From IMG/VR virus record IMGVR_UViG_2663763227_000005: a DNA stretch of 8,835 nucleotides; one strand, 5' to 3'. The notes below the pieces were generated by a model that worked only from the letters and a program-made list of their open reading frames with translations, made no database searches and had not been told where the DNA came from. The DNA is from a virus. Lineage: Duplodnaviria; Heunggongvirae; Uroviricota; Caudoviricetes. This document shows, piece by piece, positions 61 through 8,660 of the stretch. A program made the translations under genes and the position numbers. Positions within the stretch are counted from its first letter, which is position 1. Each line of letters starts with the position of its first letter.

Positions 61-675
61 TTGTTGACCACTTCAAACTTCCACGGAGTTGAGTTGGTGC
101 CCACCCGTGATATGCATGGTGTTTGGTTTACATCATCTAATATTGCATCTGCACTTAAATACGCAAATAGTCGTGCAGTAACAATGATTTATAACAAGTA
201 TAGCGATGAGTTTAGCGCCGGAATGACTCAGGTACTCGAAGTGAGTACCTCAGGAAATTATCGCAAAAAAGTGCGAGTTTTCTCACTACGCGGTGCCCAC
301 CTAATCGCGATGTTTGCTCGCACTCCGGTAGCCAAAGAGTTCCGCCGCTGGGTGCTGGATATTTTGGATCGGCAGGCAGAATGCTCACCGATTGCAAAAC
401 AGTTTACTGACGAAGAACTGGTTAATCTCTGCTACTTACAATTGTGGATGGAGAAGAGTCAACAAATGTGCAAACACATCTACCCAGGAATGAAGCAAAT
501 TGGTTCTGAGCTTTCAGGAAGGATTTACGATATTGCATATGAGACTCGCTACATGTCAGAAGAAACCAAGAAATCACTTCTTCGTGAAATGAAGAATCTT
601 GATACCAACAATTTTGTCGTAAAGAACGCTCAGCCAATGCTGGCAAAACTTCGCGGCGAGGAATGGATTCATTGA
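61..675 (+). CDS. Bro-N domain phage protein (antirepressor-like, DNA-binding). Start uncertain: TTG at 61 or 64, with an in-frame ATG only at 112.
   Basis: N-terminal pattern FHGVELVPTRDMHGVWFTSSNIASALKY ... VFSLRGAHLIAMFARTPVAKEFRRWVLDIL fits the Bro-N signature (F.F.G..IR...GEPWFVAKDVA..LGY ... LINESGLYSLI..S..P.AK.FK.WV) as I remember it. An in-frame stop at 43-45 bounds the ORF. A GGTGG SD-like sequence lies 7 nt upstream of TTG 61. Confidence 0.65.
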   Translation: MLTTSNFHGVELVPTRDMHGVWFTSSNIASALKYANSRAVTMIYNKYSDEFSAGMTQVLEVSTSGNYRKKVRVFSLRGAHLIAMFARTPVAKEFRRWVLDILDRQAECSPIAKQFTDEELVNLCYLQLWMEKSQQMCKHIYPGMKQIGSELSGRIYDIAYETRYMSEETKKSLLREMKNLDTNNFVVKNAQPMLAKLRGEEWIH

Positions 676-763
676 TTGGTGCGCCGGACTGCGCAAAAAG
701 AAAACCGCCAGTGTGCTGCTGGCGGCCTATGTCACACCCTTACTACCACATAAGGAATGCCTA

Positions 764-1492
764 ATGACTTTTAAGAATGTAGCAAACATCGGATCCGTTG
801 TCACGGATAAAACCATTGATAGCCAGTACCTGTTAGAGATGGTCAATCATGCTCGTAGACAGTGCGGGGAAAAAGAAGTCCGAAATAACGACTTTATTGC
901 ACGCATTAAGGATGAACTTGAAGGTGAGCACTACGAAATTTTCGTAGTTCAAAAATCAAACAAGACAACTTCTGAAAAAGTTGTTATGTCAATTAAGCAA
1001 GCCCTTCGAGTGGCTGCTCGTGAATCTAAAGCTGTTCGCCGCTCACTTGTAGACCAACTTGAAAGTATGCAAGAAGCGCACATTAAAAGCGGTAAATCGT
1101 CGAGTGGACTTGTTGAGTATCGCCAGGCGCGAACATTGAAAATGACGGTTGAAGCTGTTACCAATCTGTTCGATTTGATGCCAAATCTTGCGCCGGAAGC
1201 AAAGCAGACTGCGGCAGCAAGCATAATCAACCCGATAGTTGGTTTTAATGCAATACCTCTTCCGGCAATAGAAGAGCATTACTACTCAGCAGGGGAGGTT
1301 GCAGAGCAGCTTGGAGTAACGGCCAACAAGATTGGTCGCATTGCTAACGCAAACAACCTCAAAACTGAGCAGTACGGGAAGTTCTTCCTGGATAAATCTG
1401 CGCATTCCAGCAAACAGGTGGAAGCATTCCGCTACAATGCGGAAGGTGTTAAAGCTCTACAACACCTGATTCATGGGAGTAATGTTGCATAA
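764..1492 (+). CDS. Phage protein of unknown function, possibly regulatory. The C-terminal segment YYSAGEVAEQLGVTANKIGRIANANNLKTEQYGKFF looks like an HTH-type DNA-binding motif seen in antirepressor C-terminal domains. An alternative GTG start at 713 is less likely.
   Basis: Long ORF with AAGGA SD (752-756) 7 nt upstream of ATG 764. The GTG at 713 falls inside the loop of a hairpin (705-725). Domain assignment is by remembered pattern only. Confidence 0.6.
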   Translation: MTFKNVANIGSVVTDKTIDSQYLLEMVNHARRQCGEKEVRNNDFIARIKDELEGEHYEIFVVQKSNKTTSEKVVMSIKQALRVAARESKAVRRSLVDQLESMQEAHIKSGKSSSGLVEYRQARTLKMTVEAVTNLFDLMPNLAPEAKQTAAASIINPIVGFNAIPLPAIEEHYYSAGEVAEQLGVTANKIGRIANANNLKTEQYGKFFLDKSAHSSKQVEAFRYNAEGVKALQHLIHGSNVA

Positions 1493-1713
1493 TGGCAAAG
1501 AAAAAATATGGCATTATGCCGCCAAGAATCAAAGGAAGAGCCAGGGTAAAAGGCGATGCTGGGAGGTATCACATTCTTGGAGTTCTGTGGCATGAGAGAG
1601 CTTTAATTTTAAGTAGACCTCATGGGTACATTGAAAAGGTATCTATAGATAGAGTAGAGATTCTTCCCCTTACACCTGAAGAAGAAGAAACGTACGGACT
1701 TTTTGATAACTAA
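1492..1713 (+). CDS. Hypothetical small basic protein (73 aa), translationally coupled to the upstream ORF.
   Basis: ATG 1492-1494 overlaps the TAA stop (1490-1492) of the previous ORF (TAATG). It ends just before an intrinsic terminator. No recognisable family. Confidence 0.45.
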   Translation: MAKKKYGIMPPRIKGRARVKGDAGRYHILGVLWHERALILSRPHGYIEKVSIDRVEILPLTPEEEETYGLFDN

Positions 1714-1720
1714 CCAACTA

Positions 1721-1746
1721 AACCCGCTTAATCGCGGGTTTTTTAT
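1721..1746 (+). terminator. Rho-independent terminator closing the rightward ORF cluster; only weakly bidirectional.
   Basis: Stem AACCCGC (1721-1727), loop TTAATC, stem GCGGGTT (1734-1740), followed by a T-run through 1744. On the minus strand only about three U residues follow the hairpin. Confidence 0.7.
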
Positions 1747-1769
1747 AAGGAGTATTCATGATTTACCCA

Positions 1770-2306
1770 TCAAACAACCCACCAGTTTGCCTGATTGGAT
1801 ACCAGCCTTGCAGTTTTTATGGAATTAATTATGCCATGCTCAAGAGCCTTGTTAGCATCCAAAATGGTCGAGTCTGCTATCAGGGATGCCCACCTAATAT
1901 GGGTTCCGATGTCGATATTGAACGTCTCAACGAAGCGATCAAGATCGTTATCGAGGCATTTCCCGTACTCTCTCAATCTGGCATGGTCGGCGGCTGGGGA
2001 GGCAAAGCACCATAATAGAGGATGTAACAGGAATCTTGATAATGGGTTTGCGAAACGTTCTGAGCCAGCCAGGAAAACGATATTAGCTATGGATTCAACA
2101 TTGCTTATGTTGTGAGTTCTAACGGTAACAGGGAGTGACTTAAGAAAGTTATACGCAGTAAAGCCAGCGGCAGTTTCCCCTCCCTGACTTGATATATGGA
2201 TATTTAATTCAGTTGCGCCTTGAGATAATGCGGTGAGACAGTGGTTCTGAAGTTGCCCAACAGTGGCAGTGTTAACGGGGCATAAGAAATGAATTGTGTG
2301 CAGCAT
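1770..2306 (-). CDS. ClpP-fold (Clp/crotonase superfamily) serine protease, minimal core of 178 aa, in the sieA position of the immI region.
   Basis: Aligns by eye to the E. coli ClpP core: ISSQGGETAAG vs INSPGGVITAG; VESIANIVFLAG vs AASMGAFLLTAG (catalytic Ser aligned); RFLLHP vs RVMIHQP (catalytic His aligned); ANKALEHGIINSI vs APEAVEYGLVDSIL. The ATG overlaps the mnt stop (TAATG on the minus strand), with AAGGA 9 nt upstream. Confidence 0.8.
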   Translation of the reverse strand: MLHTIHFLCPVNTATVGQLQNHCLTALSQGATELNIHISSQGGETAAGFTAYNFLKSLPVTVRTHNISNVESIANIVFLAGSERFANPLSRFLLHPLLWCFASPAADHARLREYGKCLDNDLDRFVETFNIDIGTHIRWASLIADSTILDANKALEHGIINSIKTARLVSNQANWWVV

Positions 2307-2554
2307 TATTTTTCATCCTTACCATACATGGTCTTTAGCGTCTCAAGCAGCGCCTCTTTGAATTTGTCAGCTTCTTGCTGAGCAAATGACTCAACTGACT
2401 TTGGCGACCTATCTTCATCAATCGCGGCTTGCAAAATCATGACGATCTCGGAGTTAACAGAGCGACCATTTTTTGATGCTCTGACAGCAAGAGCCTCGCG
2501 TAAAGATTCAGGGATTCTTACCGTAGTTGGAGAAATTGACACACCCTTTGCCAT
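2306..2554 (-). CDS. mnt: Mnt-like ribbon-helix-helix maintenance repressor (82 aa).
   Basis: GRSVNSEIVMILQAAI matches P22 Mnt GRSMNSELLQIVQDAL as recalled. Size is right (P22 Mnt is about 83 aa). It is divergent from arc-ant as in P22. AAGGTG SD lies 4 nt upstream of the ATG. Confidence 0.8.
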   Translation of the reverse strand: MAKGVSISPTTVRIPESLREALAVRASKNGRSVNSEIVMILQAAIDEDRSPKSVESFAQQEADKFKEALLETLKTMYGKDEK

Positions 2555-2668
2555 ATCACACCTTTGGTATTCAATTTGATAGCAAAGTGTATGCAGAAAA
2601 ATTTTGACTAGATATACTCACTTTGCTATCTTTTGTATTCGAAAAGAGTTGTTTGTGTGGAGGGTAAC
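2555..2668. promoter_or_regulatory. Divergent immI promoter/operator region between mnt and arc. Candidate Pant is -35 TTGACT (2604-2609), 17-bp spacer, -10 TATCTT (2627-2632). A perfect 12-bp inverted repeat GATAGCAAAGTG (2578-2589) / CACTTTGCTATC (2619-2630) brackets the -35 and overlaps the -10.
   Basis: Read directly from the sequence. The arrangement is analogous to P22 Pant/Pmnt with Arc and Mnt operators, though the operator sequences differ from the P22 ones I remember. Pmnt could not be placed confidently. Confidence 0.5.
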
Positions 2669-2821
2669 ATGGAGAAAGAAATAAGTAAGATTTTGGTAAG
2701 GATGCCGCAGTCGTTAAAGGATGCTATAGGTAGCAGGGCAAAGGAAGAGTGCAGGTCGTTTAACTCAGAGGTTATCAAGCGCCTGATAGACAGCTTGAAG
2801 AGAGAGGGGGTAATGGTATGA
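2669..2821 (+). CDS. arc: Arc-like ribbon-helix-helix repressor (50 aa from ATG 2669). The track ORF starts at TTG 2633, but the ATG with a GGAGGG SD is preferred.
   Basis: ILVRMPQSLKDAI...CRSFNSEVIKRLIDSLKREG matches P22 Arc ...RWPREVLDLV...GRSVNSEIYQRVMESFKKEG in pattern. GGAGGG (2658-2663) lies 5 nt upstream of ATG 2669. Confidence 0.75.
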   Translation: MEKEISKILVRMPQSLKDAIGSRAKEECRSFNSEVIKRLIDSLKREGVMV

Positions 2822-3021
2822 GTAAAGAATGTTGTTTCTGCGGCATTAGCGAATCAGACGCTGATCAAACATACATTTACTCTAAAGAAACAGGTCGGAT
2901 GCTGTGTAGTGACTGCGTGTTGGACATCATAAGATACAAGCATCTTGGATGTTCTGCCAGCATTAGCAATATAGGTGAAGTATATGAAGGGAAAGATATA
3001 ACTGATAGATCAGAAAGTTGA
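2818..3021 (+). CDS. Small CxxC...CxxC zinc-ribbon protein (67 aa) inserted between arc and ant; function unknown.
   Basis: Cys5-x2-Cys8 and Cys30-x2-Cys33 spacing. The ATG overlaps the arc stop (ATGA at 2818-2821). No equivalent gene lies between arc and ant in P22 as I recall it. Confidence 0.5.
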   Translation: MSKECCFCGISESDADQTYIYSKETGRMLCSDCVLDIIRYKHLGCSASISNIGEVYEGKDITDRSES

Positions 3022-3083
3022 AGCCCCAACTGCGGGAACAGTCAGGGCTTCGGTATCAACAAATCGTCTTAGGAAATATTGAC
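3013..3083 (-). ncRNA. sar: Candidate sar-like antisense RNA (about 70 nt), complementary to the ant ribosome-binding site and start codon.
   Basis: Leftward promoter: -35 TTGATA (plus-strand 3113-3118), 17-bp spacer, extended -10 TGcTATACT (plus-strand 3090-3098). Predicted TSS is near 3083. A compound hairpin AAGCCC-ca-ACTG-cgggaa-CAGT-ca-GGGCTT (3021-3050) is followed on the minus strand by CAACUUUCUG. The predicted length matches the roughly 68-69 nt P22 sar RNA (from memory). Confidence 0.4.
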
Positions 3084-4013
3084 ATGAAAAGTATAGCAAC
3101 AGCAGTATCTACTATCAATGTGCCATTCCACGGCGCAGAGCTTTATGTTGTCAATCACAACGGCGAACCGTACACCCCAATGAAACCTATCGTTGAGGGA
3201 ATGGGCATGACTTGGCAGTCTCAACACCGCAAGTTGATGGAGAGATTTAAGACCTGCATCATCGAAATGATGATTCAGCTCCCCGGCGATACTCAGCGTC
3301 GTCTGGTTATCTGTCTTGCTTTACGCAAACTTGCAGGTTGGCTGCAAACCATCAGCCCTAACAAAGTCCGCCCTGAAATCCGCGACAAGGTAATCCAGTA
3401 TCAGGAAGAGTGTGACGATGTACTCTACGAGTACTGGACTAAAGGCCATGTAGTTAACCCACGCAAAGCTAAAAAAGCGTTGCCGGGTAAAATCACCACT
3501 GAACAGCAGGAAGCCATTAAACAACTCGTCATGAGTCGCGGTCAGTCTCTGCCAAAAGAAAAACAGGCGAAGGCAATGATTACCATGTGGTCGTCACTGA
3601 AATCCCATTTTGGATGTTCGTACAAAGAAATCAGTGAGGAGCAGTTTACAGAAGCACTGTCACTTGCAGCTCGAGTTCCACTTGAAGGTGAGTTCATTGG
3701 CAAACAAGAGAAGAAAACCAACGAGCTTTCTGCAAAAGAAGCAAACAGCCTTGTATGGTTATGGGATTATGCCAACCGCTCACAGGCATTATTCCGCGAA
3801 CTGTATCCGGCGCTAAAACAAATTCAATCGAACTATTCCGGCAGATGTCATGACTGCGGTTATGAGTTCTCCCGTATTATCGATATGGCGAGAGATGTTT
3901 TAATCAACCATACACGAGATATTGATATTAATGAGCCAGACGGACCAACGAATCTTTCCGCATGGATGAGACTTAAGAATAAAGAATTACCTCCTTCAGT
4001 ACATAACTACTGA
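3084..4013 (+). CDS. ant: Ant antirepressor (P22 Ant-type N-terminal domain), 310 aa from ATG 3084. The track ORF starts at TTG 3018, which would run through the hairpin.
   Basis: VPFHGAELYVVNHNGEPYTPMKPIVEGMGMTWQSQHRKLMERF resembles the P22 antirepressor N-terminal domain pattern. AGGAAA (3071-3076) lies 7 nt upstream of ATG 3084. The position after arc and before the tailspike is as in P22. Confidence 0.85.
   Translation: MKSIATAVSTINVPFHGAELYVVNHNGEPYTPMKPIVEGMGMTWQSQHRKLMERFKTCIIEMMIQLPGDTQRRLVICLALRKLAGWLQTISPNKVRPEIRDKVIQYQEECDDVLYEYWTKGHVVNPRKAKKALPGKITTEQQEAIKQLVMSRGQSLPKEKQAKAMITMWSSLKSHFGCSYKEISEEQFTEALSLAARVPLEGEFIGKQEKKTNELSAKEANSLVWLWDYANRSQALFRELYPALKQIQSNYSGRCHDCGYEFSRIIDMARDVLINHTRDIDINEPDGPTNLSAWMRLKNKELPPSVHNY
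3090..3118 (-). promoter_or_regulatory. Psar-like leftward sigma70 promoter inside the 5' end of ant.
   Basis: Minus-strand TTGATA - 17 bp - TGcTATACT, a near-consensus extended -10 promoter, read directly from the sequence. Confidence 0.45.
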
Positions 4014-4113: not shown

Positions 4114-6801
4114 ATGACAGATATTACAGCCAATGTGATCGTATCGATGCCTTCGCAACTCTTCACTATGGCTCGTTCTTTTAAAGCCGTAGCCAATGGC
4201 AAAATTTATATCGGTAAAATTGACACTGACCCGGTAAATCCTGAAAACCAGATTCAGGTTTATGTGGAGAACGAAGACGGCTCTCACGTTCCTGTTTCGC
4301 AACCAATAATCATTAACGCTGCTGGATATCCGGTATATAACGGGCAGATTGCCAAATTCGTTACCGTGCAAGGTCATTCTATGGCTGTTTATGATGCATA
4401 TGGTGCGCAGCAGTTCTATTTTCCTAATGTGCTGAAGTATGACCCTGATCAGTCATTGAAATATGTAGAAGGGGCATTGCTTGTTACTGACTTAGGTAAT
4501 GGGACGTTTAAGAATAGTAGAAAAGACGTTGCCATTGGGGATAATCTAACAGGAACCAATTTTATTAGAATAAACGGCGGCGTCTATAAATGCACTCCAG
4601 TTGCAACTGGAATTGTTACTGAGATCAAACATAGATACATTATCGCAGGCGGGGTTAAAAGCTACCTGTCTCATATTTCCAGGCATGTCAGTGGTACGCG
4701 TAGGCCGCTGAACTGGAAATTAGAATTCAGCATCATAGACGATGAGATTACCGCAGATCTTAAAGATCAGTATGGTTACACGACCATGGGATTTCAGGGG
4801 ATTTACATAGACAGCAATGATGGAATGGTATACATCGGCTGGCAGACGCTAGACCCCGCATCGGTATGGGTTACGGTGCATGACTGGGTAACAGGAGCAT
4901 TGGTAACACGTCTTCATTTTCCGAATAACGTTGGTGCACCAGAAGGCATCCACGTTTACCGAGTGGCAGGACAGCGTTACATCCTGCTGCCGTACAGCCC
5001 ATCTCGCACTATCAGAATTTACCCTATCGAAGATCCGCGTACGCTGGTTGATAAAACGCAGATTACAAACTTCACTGAATCAACACGCCTTGGAGTGCGA
5101 TATCAGTTTAGTGGCTTTGGTAATACCCTGATATACGAAAATGCGGATATGGGTTGGCCGAAAATTTTTGATGTTGAGACAGGTGTATCCAATATCTTTA
5201 ACACACTGGATATTAACAGCCTTATAGAAGGATCTTACAGTCCAATGGGGACTATTACGGTTGATGCAAATGTTGGAGGTCGCGGAGCCGGTAAACCAAA
5301 ACGGCAGGGTGTCGCTCTTGGTTCTCAACGGATATTTGCTGGTATTGGTGCATCTACCACGGCGGGATCTGGAAATACTTTCGCAGGGTTGCAGGGTTAT
5401 ATTGAGTACAGCCTTAATGGTTCAGAATTAGGTCAGTACCTGCTGTCACCTGCAGATTTCAAAACATACTGGGATAGTTATTCAGGGAAGAGTGTTTACT
5501 CCACTGAAAATGAGGGGGTGCAGTCTTGTGATATTTCTGGCTCTGAGGAATTGTATCTTCTACAGTCTATTCGCTATGACAATGGGGGCGGATCAAATTA
5601 TAGGACTTTAAACATCATTCGCGCTAACTGTCCATCTAATGAACCTGGAACAGTAGACATGACTCCGCTATCCAATGCCTCCTCACAGTTATTTAACCCT
5701 CGCGGAAGGGTGATTAACGCTGGCCGTCACCCTGTGAACCCGGCTGATGGTATTGCGCTATTTACATCGGCACAGGCTATTTGTGACTATTTGCGGAATA
5801 CAGATGCAGGTAGATATGTGACATATCTTGAACAGGATATGCCACTGTTTGAAGGTGGGCCATCTGCGCCAGGACAGATGACGCTGCCAGCATTCTGCCT
5901 ATTGCAGATCGACTTCATCAACGGCGATACCTGGGAAATTACAGTTAATGGAACTAACAGGGCTAATAATTATACAGGAAGGATTTCCAAAAACGGCGGG
6001 TACAACTCTTTTACTAAGGTGTCCTCCCGCAGCATGTCGATTCTCGGATCCCCTGGTCTGGTTGATGTATCAATTCGCTCACCTAACTCACTAAATCTTC
6101 CAGAATTTGCTGGAGACTGGTCTACTGGTGTAAGTATAGGAGCTGCAGGTGGGGTGACAAACTGGCAGCCAGAAGGAACAGGTAACGGAGCATTATGGGA
6201 GTCAGGATATGCAAAAAACCGTGTGTTGCAGATATTCATGTCCACAACATCAAAACTGTTCTTCCGCTACGCAGACGATGCTATTCGCGCAGGTAACACA
6301 GGCTGGGCTGAGGCATGGTCGTCGCTGAACACGACCGTCGATTCAAGTGGTTTCATCAAAAAAGCCTCTCCGGTTGTGAAGATTTTCTCAGACGGTAGTA
6401 GTGAAACAAATCGCGAATCAGATGGGGTAACCGTCACACGGCTGGCATTGGGTGAATATCTGATTGAGGGTTGCGTAGGTCTGAATGCAGATGCTTCATG
6501 GGGGGGGATTGATGGTGGATTTGAAATACCGCAGGACCGAAACAAGCAGCCGCTCATCTGGCTGGATTATGTTGTTAACCAAGATGGATCTGTGTTGGTG
6601 AAAACGTTTCACCGCACTCATGATAACTCGCCCGTTTTTGCACGTAACGACATCCCTGGTGTTTCGAACGGTGACCCGATCGACATTCCTGCTAATCAAT
6701 TCGTTTCTGTGCGAGTACAGATGCCTGAGGATTCTGCATGGAATAAGCTTAAGGAACAACTAAATAAGGCTGAATTGATAGAAGATGATGTTGTGGAATA
6801 G
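4114..6801 (+). CDS. Tailspike protein (895 aa). The N-terminal roughly 113 aa is a P22 gp9-type head-binding domain; the remaining roughly 780 aa is a divergent receptor-binding or depolymerase module of unknown specificity.
   Basis: [71 protein letters not shown]...[13 protein letters not shown]...NVLKYDPDQ is near-identical in pattern to the P22 gp9 N-terminus ([59 protein letters not shown]...VLKYDPDQ). Similarity is lost after YDPDQ. GGAG (4102-4105) lies 8 nt upstream of the ATG. Confidence 0.9.
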
Positions 6802-7487
6802 GTCTGTGATATTGGCATAGGTATAAGTGTCCGCTATATGGGTGGCATTACGCCACCTTGCCATCTAGCTAGTCCGCCCACCACTGCATCATTTCTCTGC
6901 GCTTAACGTAGCGGATGCCTCACTATCACACGGTGATGGTTCATTACTGCTTTGTAGAATGGATAGAGAACTGAGGATTAAAAGATATCCCAAAACCCCA
7001 AAATCTCATCTTTAGGATTTGCAGAAAGGGAGGCGTGAACAGATGCCTGCGCATGAAGACGGAACTAGTCCAGATGTGATATTTGTGGTGATCACATACA
7101 TCATCAACGATGCTCGTTATGGTGAGTTTGATGACTACCCGCTGAAGTGAAAATTGTTTTGTGTACCAAATTGCGTACCAAACTAAAATCACAAATCATG
7201 AAGCCCTTGTTCATGGCGGTTCTCAGGGGTGTTGCGCGTAATCGTGAAACAAAAAGGTAGATTGTTGCTTACCGTCATTCATCATTAGGTTAAATCCGTT
7301 GTTTCTGCTGTCTGCCAGAGTATCAAATATCACCGTGCTAATCAGCTTTAGCGCGACAATTTGGCAGCGAGTGGCAACAGATCATGTCAGATAAAAATGA
7401 GAGGGTAGTCACATTTTCTTGCACTTTATTCCAGCCAGTTCATAAGTATTTCCGTAAAAAGAACAGCTATTTGAAACTCCTGAGGGT

Positions 7488-8660
7488 TTGCTGTTGAAAC
7501 GCCGTCTTATTATTGCTGCTTCTTTGTTCGTTTTTAATTTATCGTCTGGTTTTGCGGCGGAAAACATTCCTTTTTCACCTCAACCTCCAGAGATTCATGC
7601 CGGGTCCTGGGTATTGATGGATTACACCACCGGTCAGATTCTCACCGCGGGTAATGAGCATCAACAGCGCAATCCCGCCAGCCTGACAAAGCTGATGACG
7701 GGCTATGTCGTGGATCGCGCTATCGATAGTCATCGCATTACGCCAGACGATATTGTCACCGTGGGGCGTGATGCGTGGGCGAAAGATAATCCGGTGTTTG
7801 TCGGTTCTTCACTGATGTTTTTGAAAGAGGGCGATCGCGTATCGGTACGTGATTTAAGCCGTGGTTTAATTGTGGATTCCGGAAATGACGCTTGTGTTGC
7901 ACTGGCTGACTATATTGCCGGTGGGCAACGGCAGTTTGTTGAAATGATGAACAACTATGCCGAGAAGCTGCATCTCAAGGATACGCATTTTGAAACAGTG
8001 CATGGTCTGGATGCACCTGGCCAGCATAGCTCGGCTTATGATTTAGCTGTGCTTTCTCGCGCTATCATCCACGGCGAGCCCGAGTTTTATCATATGTACA
8101 GTGAGAAAAGCCTCACCTGGAACGGTATCACCCAGCAAAACCGTAACGGGTTATTGTGGGATAAAACCATGAATGTTGACGGCCTGAAAACGGGTCATAC
8201 TTCTGGTGCCGGGTTTAATCTCATTGCTTCGGCTGTAGATGGGCAGCGTCGTCTCATTGCAGTGGTAATGGGGGCTGACAGCGCAAAAGGTCGTGAGGAA
8301 GAGGCAAGAAAATTACTGCGTTGGGGTCAACAAAACTTTACTACGGTGCAAATTTTGCACCGTGGGAAAAAGGTTGGTACGGAACGCATCTGGTATGGCG
8401 ATAAAGAAAATATCGCCCTGGGAACGGAACAAGAGTTCTGGATGGTGCTACCGAAAGCCGAAATTCCACATATCAAAGCCAAATATACCCTTGATGGTAA
8501 AGAACTCACCGCGCCAATTAGCGCCCATCAGCGGGTAGGGGAAATTGAACTTTACGACCGTGATAAACAGGTGGCGCACTGGCCGCTGGTTACCCTGGAA
8601 TCTGTCGGGGAAGGCAGCATGTTTTCCCGGCTGAGTGATTATTTCCACCATAAGGACTGA
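7488..8660 (+). CDS. dacD: D-alanyl-D-alanine carboxypeptidase DacD (PBP6b), a host gene. It has a non-ATG start: TTG at 7488, or TTG at 7494 with better SD spacing.
   Basis: The protein matches E. coli DacD essentially along its full length as I remember it (signal peptide LIIAASLFVFNLSSGFA, SxxK motif in PASLTKLMT, SGN, KTG). GAGGG (7482-7486) lies upstream. Confidence 0.9.
   Translation: MLLKRRLIIAASLFVFNLSSGFAAENIPFSPQPPEIHAGSWVLMDYTTGQILTAGNEHQQRNPASLTKLMTGYVVDRAIDSHRITPDDIVTVGRDAWAKDNPVFVGSSLMFLKEGDRVSVRDLSRGLIVDSGNDACVALADYIAGGQRQFVEMMNNYAEKLHLKDTHFETVHGLDAPGQHSSAYDLAVLSRAIIHGEPEFYHMYSEKSLTWNGITQQNRNGLLWDKTMNVDGLKTGHTSGAGFNLIASAVDGQRRLIAVVMGADSAKGREEEARKLLRWGQQNFTTVQILHRGKKVGTERIWYGDKENIALGTEQEFWMVLPKAEIPHIKAKYTLDGKELTAPISAHQRVGEIELYDRDKQVAHWPLVTLESVGEGSMFSRLSDYFHHKD

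Follow-up and report, generated by a model that had tools for sequence, protein, structure and literature searches.

The 8.8-kb window analyzed here (the whole stretch of DNA, 8,835 nucleotides, of the IMG/VR virus record IMGVR_UViG_2663763227_000005) represents the right-hand end of a P22-like (Lederbergvirus) prophage, which adjoins the Escherichia coli chromosomal gene dacD. Its immunity region, immI, contains a minus-strand open reading frame (ORF) of 178 amino acids (aa) directly behind the gene for a Mnt-like maintenance repressor. Our analysis indicates that this gene probably encodes a short, "gateless" ClpP paralogue of the type represented by PpClpP1 of Pseudomonas plecoglossicida, carried as temperate-phage cargo in Enterobacterales and altering Clp proteolysis in the lysogen.

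A sequence-only reading of this stretch had proposed a stand-alone ClpP-fold protease at this position. The 178-aa ORF is indeed present, and its translation contains the motifs quoted in that reading (VESIANIVFLAG, RFLLHP, and ILDANKA). The ClpP fold is confirmed by profile, structure prediction, and structural comparison. Pfam CLP_protease (PF00574) matches the protein with 44.4 bits (cut-off 20.2; E 2.2e-11) over profile positions 37–180 of 182. A monomer model generated with AlphaFold2 (AF2; mean predicted local distance difference test score, pLDDT, 92.4) displays the ClpP alpha/beta fold with its handle helix, and the top listed Foldseek matches in the PDB are ClpP structures with template modeling (TM) scores of 0.72–0.92, save two SppA chains. 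A single PDB entry stands out by sequence. Entry 9UXT, a 183-aa "Clp protease" with 14 chains, is matched by phmmer with an E value of 1.8e-35 over residues 3–175 and by the family profile with an E value of 1e-51. Foldseek aligns the model to 9UXT with a TM score of 0.92, a root-mean-square deviation (rmsd) of 1.7 Å, and 38% identity; canonical ClpPs give TM scores of about 0.8 and identities of about 20%.

9UXT is the structure of PpClpP1 (Chen et al., PLoS Pathog 2026, PMC12900304). PpClpP1 is a homotetradecamer with a truncated N-terminus and an axial pore of 42.7 Å. Its active site is described as "Ser73-His96-Pro151"; the S73A and H96A mutations kill activity, and changes of the third residue leave about 60%. 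Peptidase activity is 13-fold below that of the canonical paralogue. By itself, PpClpP1 neither pulls down ClpX nor is stabilized by acyldepsipeptide (ADEP), whereas with canonical ClpP it forms a stable heterotetradecamer that is more active and binds and works with ClpX. Bortezomib inhibits the enzyme, and deletion of its gene causes defects in growth and motility. That study regards this kind of protein as an oddity of the chromosome and as a drug target, and prophages are mentioned nowhere in it (PMC12900304). In the 9UXT chain, the "triad" proline is residue 150 when counted in the HMMER alignment, compared with Pro151 in the paper; the numbering of Ser73, His96, S117, and D121 agrees between the two.

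The phage-borne protein resembles PpClpP1 in most of these respects. Both are short (183 and 178 aa), lack the N-terminal axial loop and helix, have invariant Ser and His residues, and carry a residue other than Asp at the third triad position. Both have a polar ClpX/ADEP pocket and are encoded by stand-alone genes away from clpX, and their sequences are about 40% identical. The third position is Pro in PpClpP1 but Ser or Ala in the enterobacterial clade, and PpClpP1 lacks the C-terminal N-W-W-V of that clade. PpClpP1 is chromosomal, whereas members of the enterobacterial clade are carried by temperate phages and the gene in the window is predicted to be co-transcribed with a phage repressor. 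The tetradecamer and the partnership with ClpP were demonstrated for PpClpP1, while the enterobacterial member is known here from its sequence and a monomer model. Judged by those two lines of evidence, the 178-aa protein belongs to the PpClpP1-type short ClpP paralogues.

Alignment to E. coli pre-ClpP places the first residue of the protein at the first core beta-strand, 38 residues past the start of pre-ClpP. The protein thus has neither the axial loops nor helix A, in agreement with the earlier prediction that the N-terminal axial region is lost. The Ser/His/Asp triad proposed in the same reading stood only in part. Residue conservation was scored on 183 homologues, 64 of them enterobacterial and 119 pseudomonad, and all 183 have Ser72 and His95. 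D150 of ILDANKA, the Asp of the earlier proposal, falls opposite a Ser in E. coli ClpP and differs among the 64 enterobacterial sequences (D in 36, N in 11, T in 8, and S in 4); the 183-homologue alignment and the registers of E. coli ClpP and PpClpP1 rule it out as the third triad residue. That position is occupied by Ser146, which is in register with Asp171 of ClpP and the "triad" Pro of PpClpP1 and is Ala or Ser in the enterobacterial clade and Pro in pseudomonads. The residues of E. coli ClpP that we take to line the docking pocket for ClpX and ClpA (Y60, Y62, F82, I90, M92, F112, L114, and L189) align with N35, H37, S57, H65, I67, F85, N87, and K164. As read from this alignment, the hydrophobic pocket that accepts the IGF/IGL loop in canonical ClpP is not kept, and polar residues substitute. 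The protein thus departs from canonical ATP-dependent ClpP in its triad, its N-terminal axial loops, its IGF/IGL pocket, and its scores against the canonical-ClpP NCBIfam equivalogs (TIGR00493 / PRK00277), which are 19–40 bits against cut-offs of 228–361.

Second ClpP isoforms offer a looser parallel. In Listeria ClpP1/2, Pseudomonas aeruginosa ClpP1/2, and Mycobacterium ClpP1P2, a paralogue with low or no activity gains function once it is part of a mixed barrel; in Listeria ClpP1, too, the catalytic Asp is missing (Asn in its place), and these isoforms are among the next-best fold matches (4ryf, TM 0.81). Unlike the phage-borne protein, they are products of full-length chromosomal genes that keep the N-terminal loops, and identity is about 20%. 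To our knowledge, none of them is phage-borne.

An exhaustive profile search recovered 266 clusters (50% identity) at E ≤ 1e-30, nearly all of them 180–200 aa long; short ClpP paralogues therefore constitute a sizeable family. In a neighbor-joining tree rooted on E. coli ClpP, the enterobacterial (n = 62) and pseudomonad (n = 120) sequences form reciprocally monophyletic sister clades with a mean identity of about 37% to each other and about 22% to E. coli ClpP. The pseudomonad and Azotobacter copies are chromosomal and stand-alone and lie near KGG and CsbD stress genes, which rules out PpClpP1 as a prophage-borne gene. The suggestion that the protease is new was not borne out, given the size of this known family and a member that has been solved and characterized (PMC12900304). 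What appear to be undescribed are the phage-borne sister clade and its coupling to mnt.

The enterobacterial gene is under strong purifying selection. Comparison of the E. coli and Pectobacterium copies, which encode 79% identical proteins, gives a ratio of nonsynonymous to synonymous substitution (dN/dS) of 0.08. In more distant pairs, synonymous sites are saturated and the proteins are still 52–74% identical. The G+C content of the gene tracks that of the host, from 0.35 to 0.60. The C-terminal N-W-W-V (window 1770–1784) is kept in the enterobacterial clade, with W175 in 58 and W176 in 56 of 64 sequences; the pseudomonad clade, including PpClpP1, has Q-W-S-V at this place. A few truncated or interrupted copies exist (L069, L071, and L072 in IMG/VR; H68 and H69 in E. 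coli genomes) and would fit a decaying or functionless passenger gene. The pattern of conservation contradicts that explanation: besides the low dN/dS and the protein identity of 52–79% over saturated synonymous sites, Ser and His are invariant, and 80% or more of the gene is present in 126 of the 128 E. coli copies. We regard a passenger gene as highly improbable.

All enterobacterial-type contexts that we looked up are prophages, including those of all four Enterobacterales species representatives with the gene in GTDB (the GTDB scan used strict peptide patterns, yielded 11 loci, and undercounts the family). A scan of IMG/VR returned 115 viral contigs, of which 80 loci were analyzed. The gene occupies at least five slots across P22-like, lambda-like, and myovirus-like prophages. 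In P22-like phages it lies behind mnt, and the 79%-identical Pectobacterium copy keeps the 1-nt overlap. In lambdoid prophages of Klebsiella, E. coli, Leclercia, and Citrobacter it is inserted on the opposite strand between the lysis genes (Rz/LysC) and the small terminase gene; in Proteus it lies between gene N and erf/ssb, again on the opposite strand; and in myovirus-like prophages of Chromobacterium and Pantoea it is found beside tail/baseplate genes. Finally, the lambda-like E. coli phages PhiR12 carry the entire ClpP-like/mnt/arc/ant cassette between the tail genes L and K. A P22-type immI region thus moves as a module into phages of an unrelated morphotype, the lambda-like siphoviruses. 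The L/K cassette was seen in L002 (PhiR12_1, locus 6035–8047), L040, L042–L044, L047–L051, and L057.

In the IMG/VR loci and the other contexts examined, all recognized neighbors of the gene are on the opposite strand, save the Mnt-like gene or genes directly upstream. Opposite-strand neighbors outside the mnt operon therefore effectively exclude a prohead (head maturation) protease and argue against a role specific to immI. In the GenBank record of phage phiv205-1, the gene is annotated as a prohead protease; phrog_94 ("head maturation protease") is the top PHROG hit of its product (E 7e-21), and the NCBIfam model Clp_rel_HeadMat (NF045542) gives 49.3 bits. The latter score is far under the 120-bit cut-off. 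The prohead proteases of PHROG 94/133 and NF045542 share with our protein the ClpP fold, a phage origin, and detectable profile similarity, but they are late proteins encoded in the head module, in many cases as fusions with scaffold or capsid domains. The gene described here is isolated outside the head-gene operon, on the strand opposite to the late genes and predicted to be expressed with a lysogeny repressor, and its product contains neither a scaffold nor a capsid domain. The nearest relatives are cellular ClpP paralogues, and in one case the prophage that carries the gene already encodes an S78 prohead protease. Moreover, procapsids of the P22 type mature without proteolysis. A function in head maturation is hardly credible, and the phiv205-1 annotation is wrong on both score and context; the contention that this is a non-prohead, stand-alone protease holds. 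The phiv205-1 prophage raises biofilm formation and adhesion in avian pathogenic E. coli (APEC), a phenotype tied to no gene (PMC10052878).

The link to mnt is close wherever the P22-type arrangement occurs. As the sequence-only reading had noted, the ATG of the ClpP-like gene overlaps the mnt stop codon (TAATG; junction GAAAAATAATGCTG), with base 2306 common to both codons, and an AAGGA lies 9 nt 5' of the ATG. Among 37 loci with a copy that is at least 97% identical or of the Pectobacterium type, 35 have a same-strand Mnt-like gene that ends on the first base of the ClpP-like ORF. The exceptions are L065, for which the start was called differently, and the truncated copy in L071; L069 and L072, counted within the 35, are interrupted or truncated copies. 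In L036 and L037, two or three Mnt-like genes in a row, tandem repressor paralogues in one operon, precede the ClpP-like gene. A G+C-rich hairpin downstream, followed by a T-run on the plus strand and UUUAGUU on the minus strand, is the likely terminator of the mnt/ClpP-like transcript; it was revealed by folding and was not listed by a simple terminator scan. Co-transcription of the two genes, in line with the co-expression proposed earlier, is supported as a prediction, and their expression in the lysogen would follow by analogy with P22.

In the published P22 layout, the mnt transcript is mnt-orf59a-t_mnt, and sieA follows under its own promoter, PsieA. Since the ClpP-like gene comes second in the mnt operon, it corresponds in position to orf59a. 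The previous assignment to the "sieA slot" is approximately right, in that sieA lies just beyond in P22, but the strict position is that of orf59a. The P22 genes share with the ClpP-like gene the position downstream of mnt and the logic of expression in the lysogen, but show neither a sequence nor a fold relationship to its product. SieA is a membrane protein that blocks DNA injection, and the paper describing it contains no mention of proteases (PMC10883804). Neither a signal peptide nor a membrane segment is present in the ClpP-like protein.

Comparison of the immI regions of related phages, which the sequence-only reading had called for, reveals a variable slot. The ClpP-like gene is absent from related prophages at the same dacD site, including L027 and L028. 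In Salmonella phage S.Kent 1-2-1, Mnt is identical at 81 of 82 residues, and the next gene, which overlaps mnt by 4 nt, codes for another product, a signal-peptide protein of 105 aa. The S.Kent 1-2-1 cargo (L114, 2124–3502, minus strand) encodes this protein together with 74-aa and 140-aa membrane proteins and is plausibly related to the cell surface or to exclusion. Where the match extends across the gene (39 loci), the conserved DNA block begins on its left at 1736 or 1748 in 36 cases; its right ends fall inside mnt (2326–2398), after arc (2821), or after sar (3099). A block that extends from the terminator into the 3' part of mnt indicates that the gene recombines, with the 3' end of mnt, onto differing sets of repressor, operator, and antirepressor. 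These observations support the view that the ClpP-like gene is accessory cargo of the moron type in a variable immI slot.

A dedicated immI regulator would have to degrade Ant, Arc, or Mnt and thereby stop leaky antirepressor from inducing the prophage. Copies of at least 97% identity do lie directly behind a same-strand Mnt-like gene, with the stop overlap in all but one intact copy, and the gene travels with the arc-ant cassette even into the L/K slot of lambda-like phages. However, members that are 51–74% identical occur in the lysis-terminase, baseplate, or N slot with no mnt, arc, or ant within several kb, which weakens the earlier suggestion that the protease tunes the Arc/Mnt/Ant circuit. 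Copies of the gene remain at least 97% identical while the adjoining Mnt alleles range from 36 to 100% identity and Arc and Ant also vary, which would be unexpected for a specific pair of protease and substrate. Phages with the same Mnt lack the gene, and P22 itself does without it. Because most of the clade lives without immI and the gene is constant while Mnt, Arc, and Ant vary, we consider such a regulator quite unlikely.

The properties of PpClpP1, at about 40% identity, suggest how a ClpP paralogue carried as phage cargo might act. Since mnt is expressed in lysogens of P22, the ClpP-like protein should be made in the lysogen alongside Mnt. It would form a barrel of two stacked heptamers around a wide, open axial pore, show weak peptidase activity based on the Ser-His pair, and, by itself, be unable to bind ClpX. 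If it pairs with the ring of the host's housekeeping ClpP, the hybrid barrel would dock the unfoldase on its ClpP side and degrade substrates faster. Proteolysis that depends on Clp would then likely be altered in the lysogen, which would amount to lysogenic conversion acting on proteostasis. Candidates for the selected benefit include exclusion of other phages, prophage stability, and host fitness. ClpXP and ClpAP control proteins that matter to phages, such as replication initiators, repressor fragments, antitoxins, and sigma-S. It is tempting to speculate that the gateless ring docks on the host ClpP heptamer and reprograms ClpXP/ClpAP in the lysogen, with superinfection exclusion or control of induction as the pay-off; we advance this specific form only tentatively. 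If true, it would be the first mechanism of lysogenic conversion or defense in which a phage-encoded subunit swap remodels the core of a host AAA+ (ATPases associated with diverse cellular activities) protease.

Several considerations weigh against our proposal of phage cargo that alters Clp proteolysis. We found no experiment on any phage-borne member in the literature searched by topic, accession, and phage name; a search for phage-borne ClpP returned only the PpClpP1 paper and an unrelated mention of a staphylococcal prophage clpP. Assembly with E. coli ClpP would be extrapolated across about 60% sequence divergence. The third "triad" residue, as aligned, differs between the clades, and because the C-terminal W-W-V is kept only in the enterobacterial clade, properties may differ from those of PpClpP1. 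Expression in the lysogen is projected from P22, and the promoter scan missed Pmnt. Lastly, the ancestral role of the family is housekeeping-like and not phage-related, because the pseudomonad relatives are chromosomal and have growth and motility phenotypes.

A more pointed alternative is that the protein is an anti-phage or superinfection-exclusion effector, in which an open-pored barrel, alone or with host ClpP, degrades proteins of incoming phages; unfolded ejection proteins and ClpXP-sensitive initiators such as lambda O would be candidate targets. The slots used by the gene (the mnt operon by P22 sieA, the lysis-terminase junction, gene N, and the myovirus tail region) are typical of exclusion and conversion genes expressed in lysogens; lambda carries bor at the lysis-terminase junction. 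The cargo behind mnt is swapped between phages, and the gene is patchy and horizontally spread. On the other hand, a moron-slot position is not specific to defense, PADLOC-DB v2 gave no family at E values up to 0.1, and the literature searches described above gave no report of such a function. The chromosomal pseudomonad homologues have roles in growth and motility, not defense. On balance, this explanation is possible but doubtful.

The preferred reading, that of cargo altering Clp proteolysis, would have wider implications. The sister clade of PpClpP1 is sporadic temperate-phage cargo, and prophages would be able to adjust a central protease of their hosts if the phage copy pairs with the host's ClpP. 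Competition between phages, stress responses, biofilm formation, and virulence would be affected, as would antibiotics directed at ClpP, since bortezomib inhibits PpClpP1. With the phage-borne clade, the recent structural finding on PpClpP1 becomes a testable hypothesis on phage manipulation of this protease.

The immI-linked form is present in 128 of 5426 complete E. coli genomes (about 2.4%), including APEC strains and strains of sequence type 95 (ST95), and the copies are at least 99% identical in all but one of the 128. Among the records listed, the E. coli gene always adjoins an Arc-family gene save for one truncated copy and one partial match. A second family member of 186 aa, 52% identical, occurs in 15 further E. 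coli genomes; this form (L022) resides in lambdoid prophages in the slot between LysC/Rz and HNH/terminase genes. Most of the evidence comes from prophages and IMG/VR contigs because only six isolated phages in GenBank have the gene.

Features of the window, with coordinates, strand, and the evidence for each assignment
Feature	Position	Strand	Evidence
Bro-N/P22AR_C antirepressor-like gene	61–675	+	Profile matches
Second antirepressor-family gene	713–1492	+	phrog_1726
73-aa ORF	1492–1713	+	phrog_4977
G+C-rich hairpin ACCCGCG...CGCGGGU between convergent units	1728–1755	.	Folding −16.2 kcal/mol, z −2.7
Short ClpP paralogue, PpClpP1 type, 178 aa	1770–2306	−	Pfam, PDB sequence search, AF2, Foldseek, alignment
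Mnt-like ribbon-helix-helix maintenance repressor, 82 aa, first cistron	2306–2554	−	Pfam Arc, E 9.6e-11
Divergent control region, mnt/arc	2555–2632	.	Promoter scan, inverted-repeat search
Arc repressor homologue	2633–2821	+	Pfam Arc, E 8.5e-12
67-aa Cys-rich ORF (CxxC…CxxC), overlaps arc stop	2818–3021	+	phrog_7150, function unknown
sar antisense RNA	3016–3082	−	Rfam RF00262, 73.4 bits (gathering score 43)
Antirepressor Ant	3084–4013	+	Pfam P22_AR_N, P22_AR_C; comparison with S.Kent Ant N-terminus
Tailspike with P22 head-binding domain	4114–6801	+	Profile matches
dacD	7488–8660		Pfam Peptidase_S11; neighbors dacD-sbmC-yeeA in related genomes

Further observations concern the rest of the window, mainly its immI region. 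The 82-aa repressor, which matches P22 mnt by tblastn with 37.5% identity across 82% of its length, is a full-length homologue of P22 Mnt. The promoter scan identified a Pant-like promoter (TTGACT-17-TATCTT, 2604–2632, plus strand) between mnt and arc, and located neither Pmnt nor an internal promoter. A perfect 12-nt inverted repeat, GATAGCAAAGTG / CACTTTGCTATC, at 2578–2589 and 2619–2630 flanks the Pant-like promoter on both sides, and 29 nt separate its arms. The two arms could be operators, with a geometry unlike that of the adjacent Omnt and Oarc of P22. Because sar lies just upstream of ant, the start of Ant is most likely the ATG at 3084 (MKSIATAV…) and not the mechanically called TTG at 3018, which overlaps sar. 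P22 has nothing at the spot between arc and sar/ant that is held here by the Cys-rich ORF; elsewhere, this spot holds an 89-aa membrane-like protein (S.Kent 1-2-1) or a 73-aa ORF (vB_EcoP-611R6), and it looks like a second small cargo slot inside immI. In prophages L027 and L028, the module corresponding to 61–1713 is preceded by an arc gene of its own, and directly after it come a minus-strand Arc-family gene and a tailspike gene; from this arrangement, the window seems to combine two immI-like modules.

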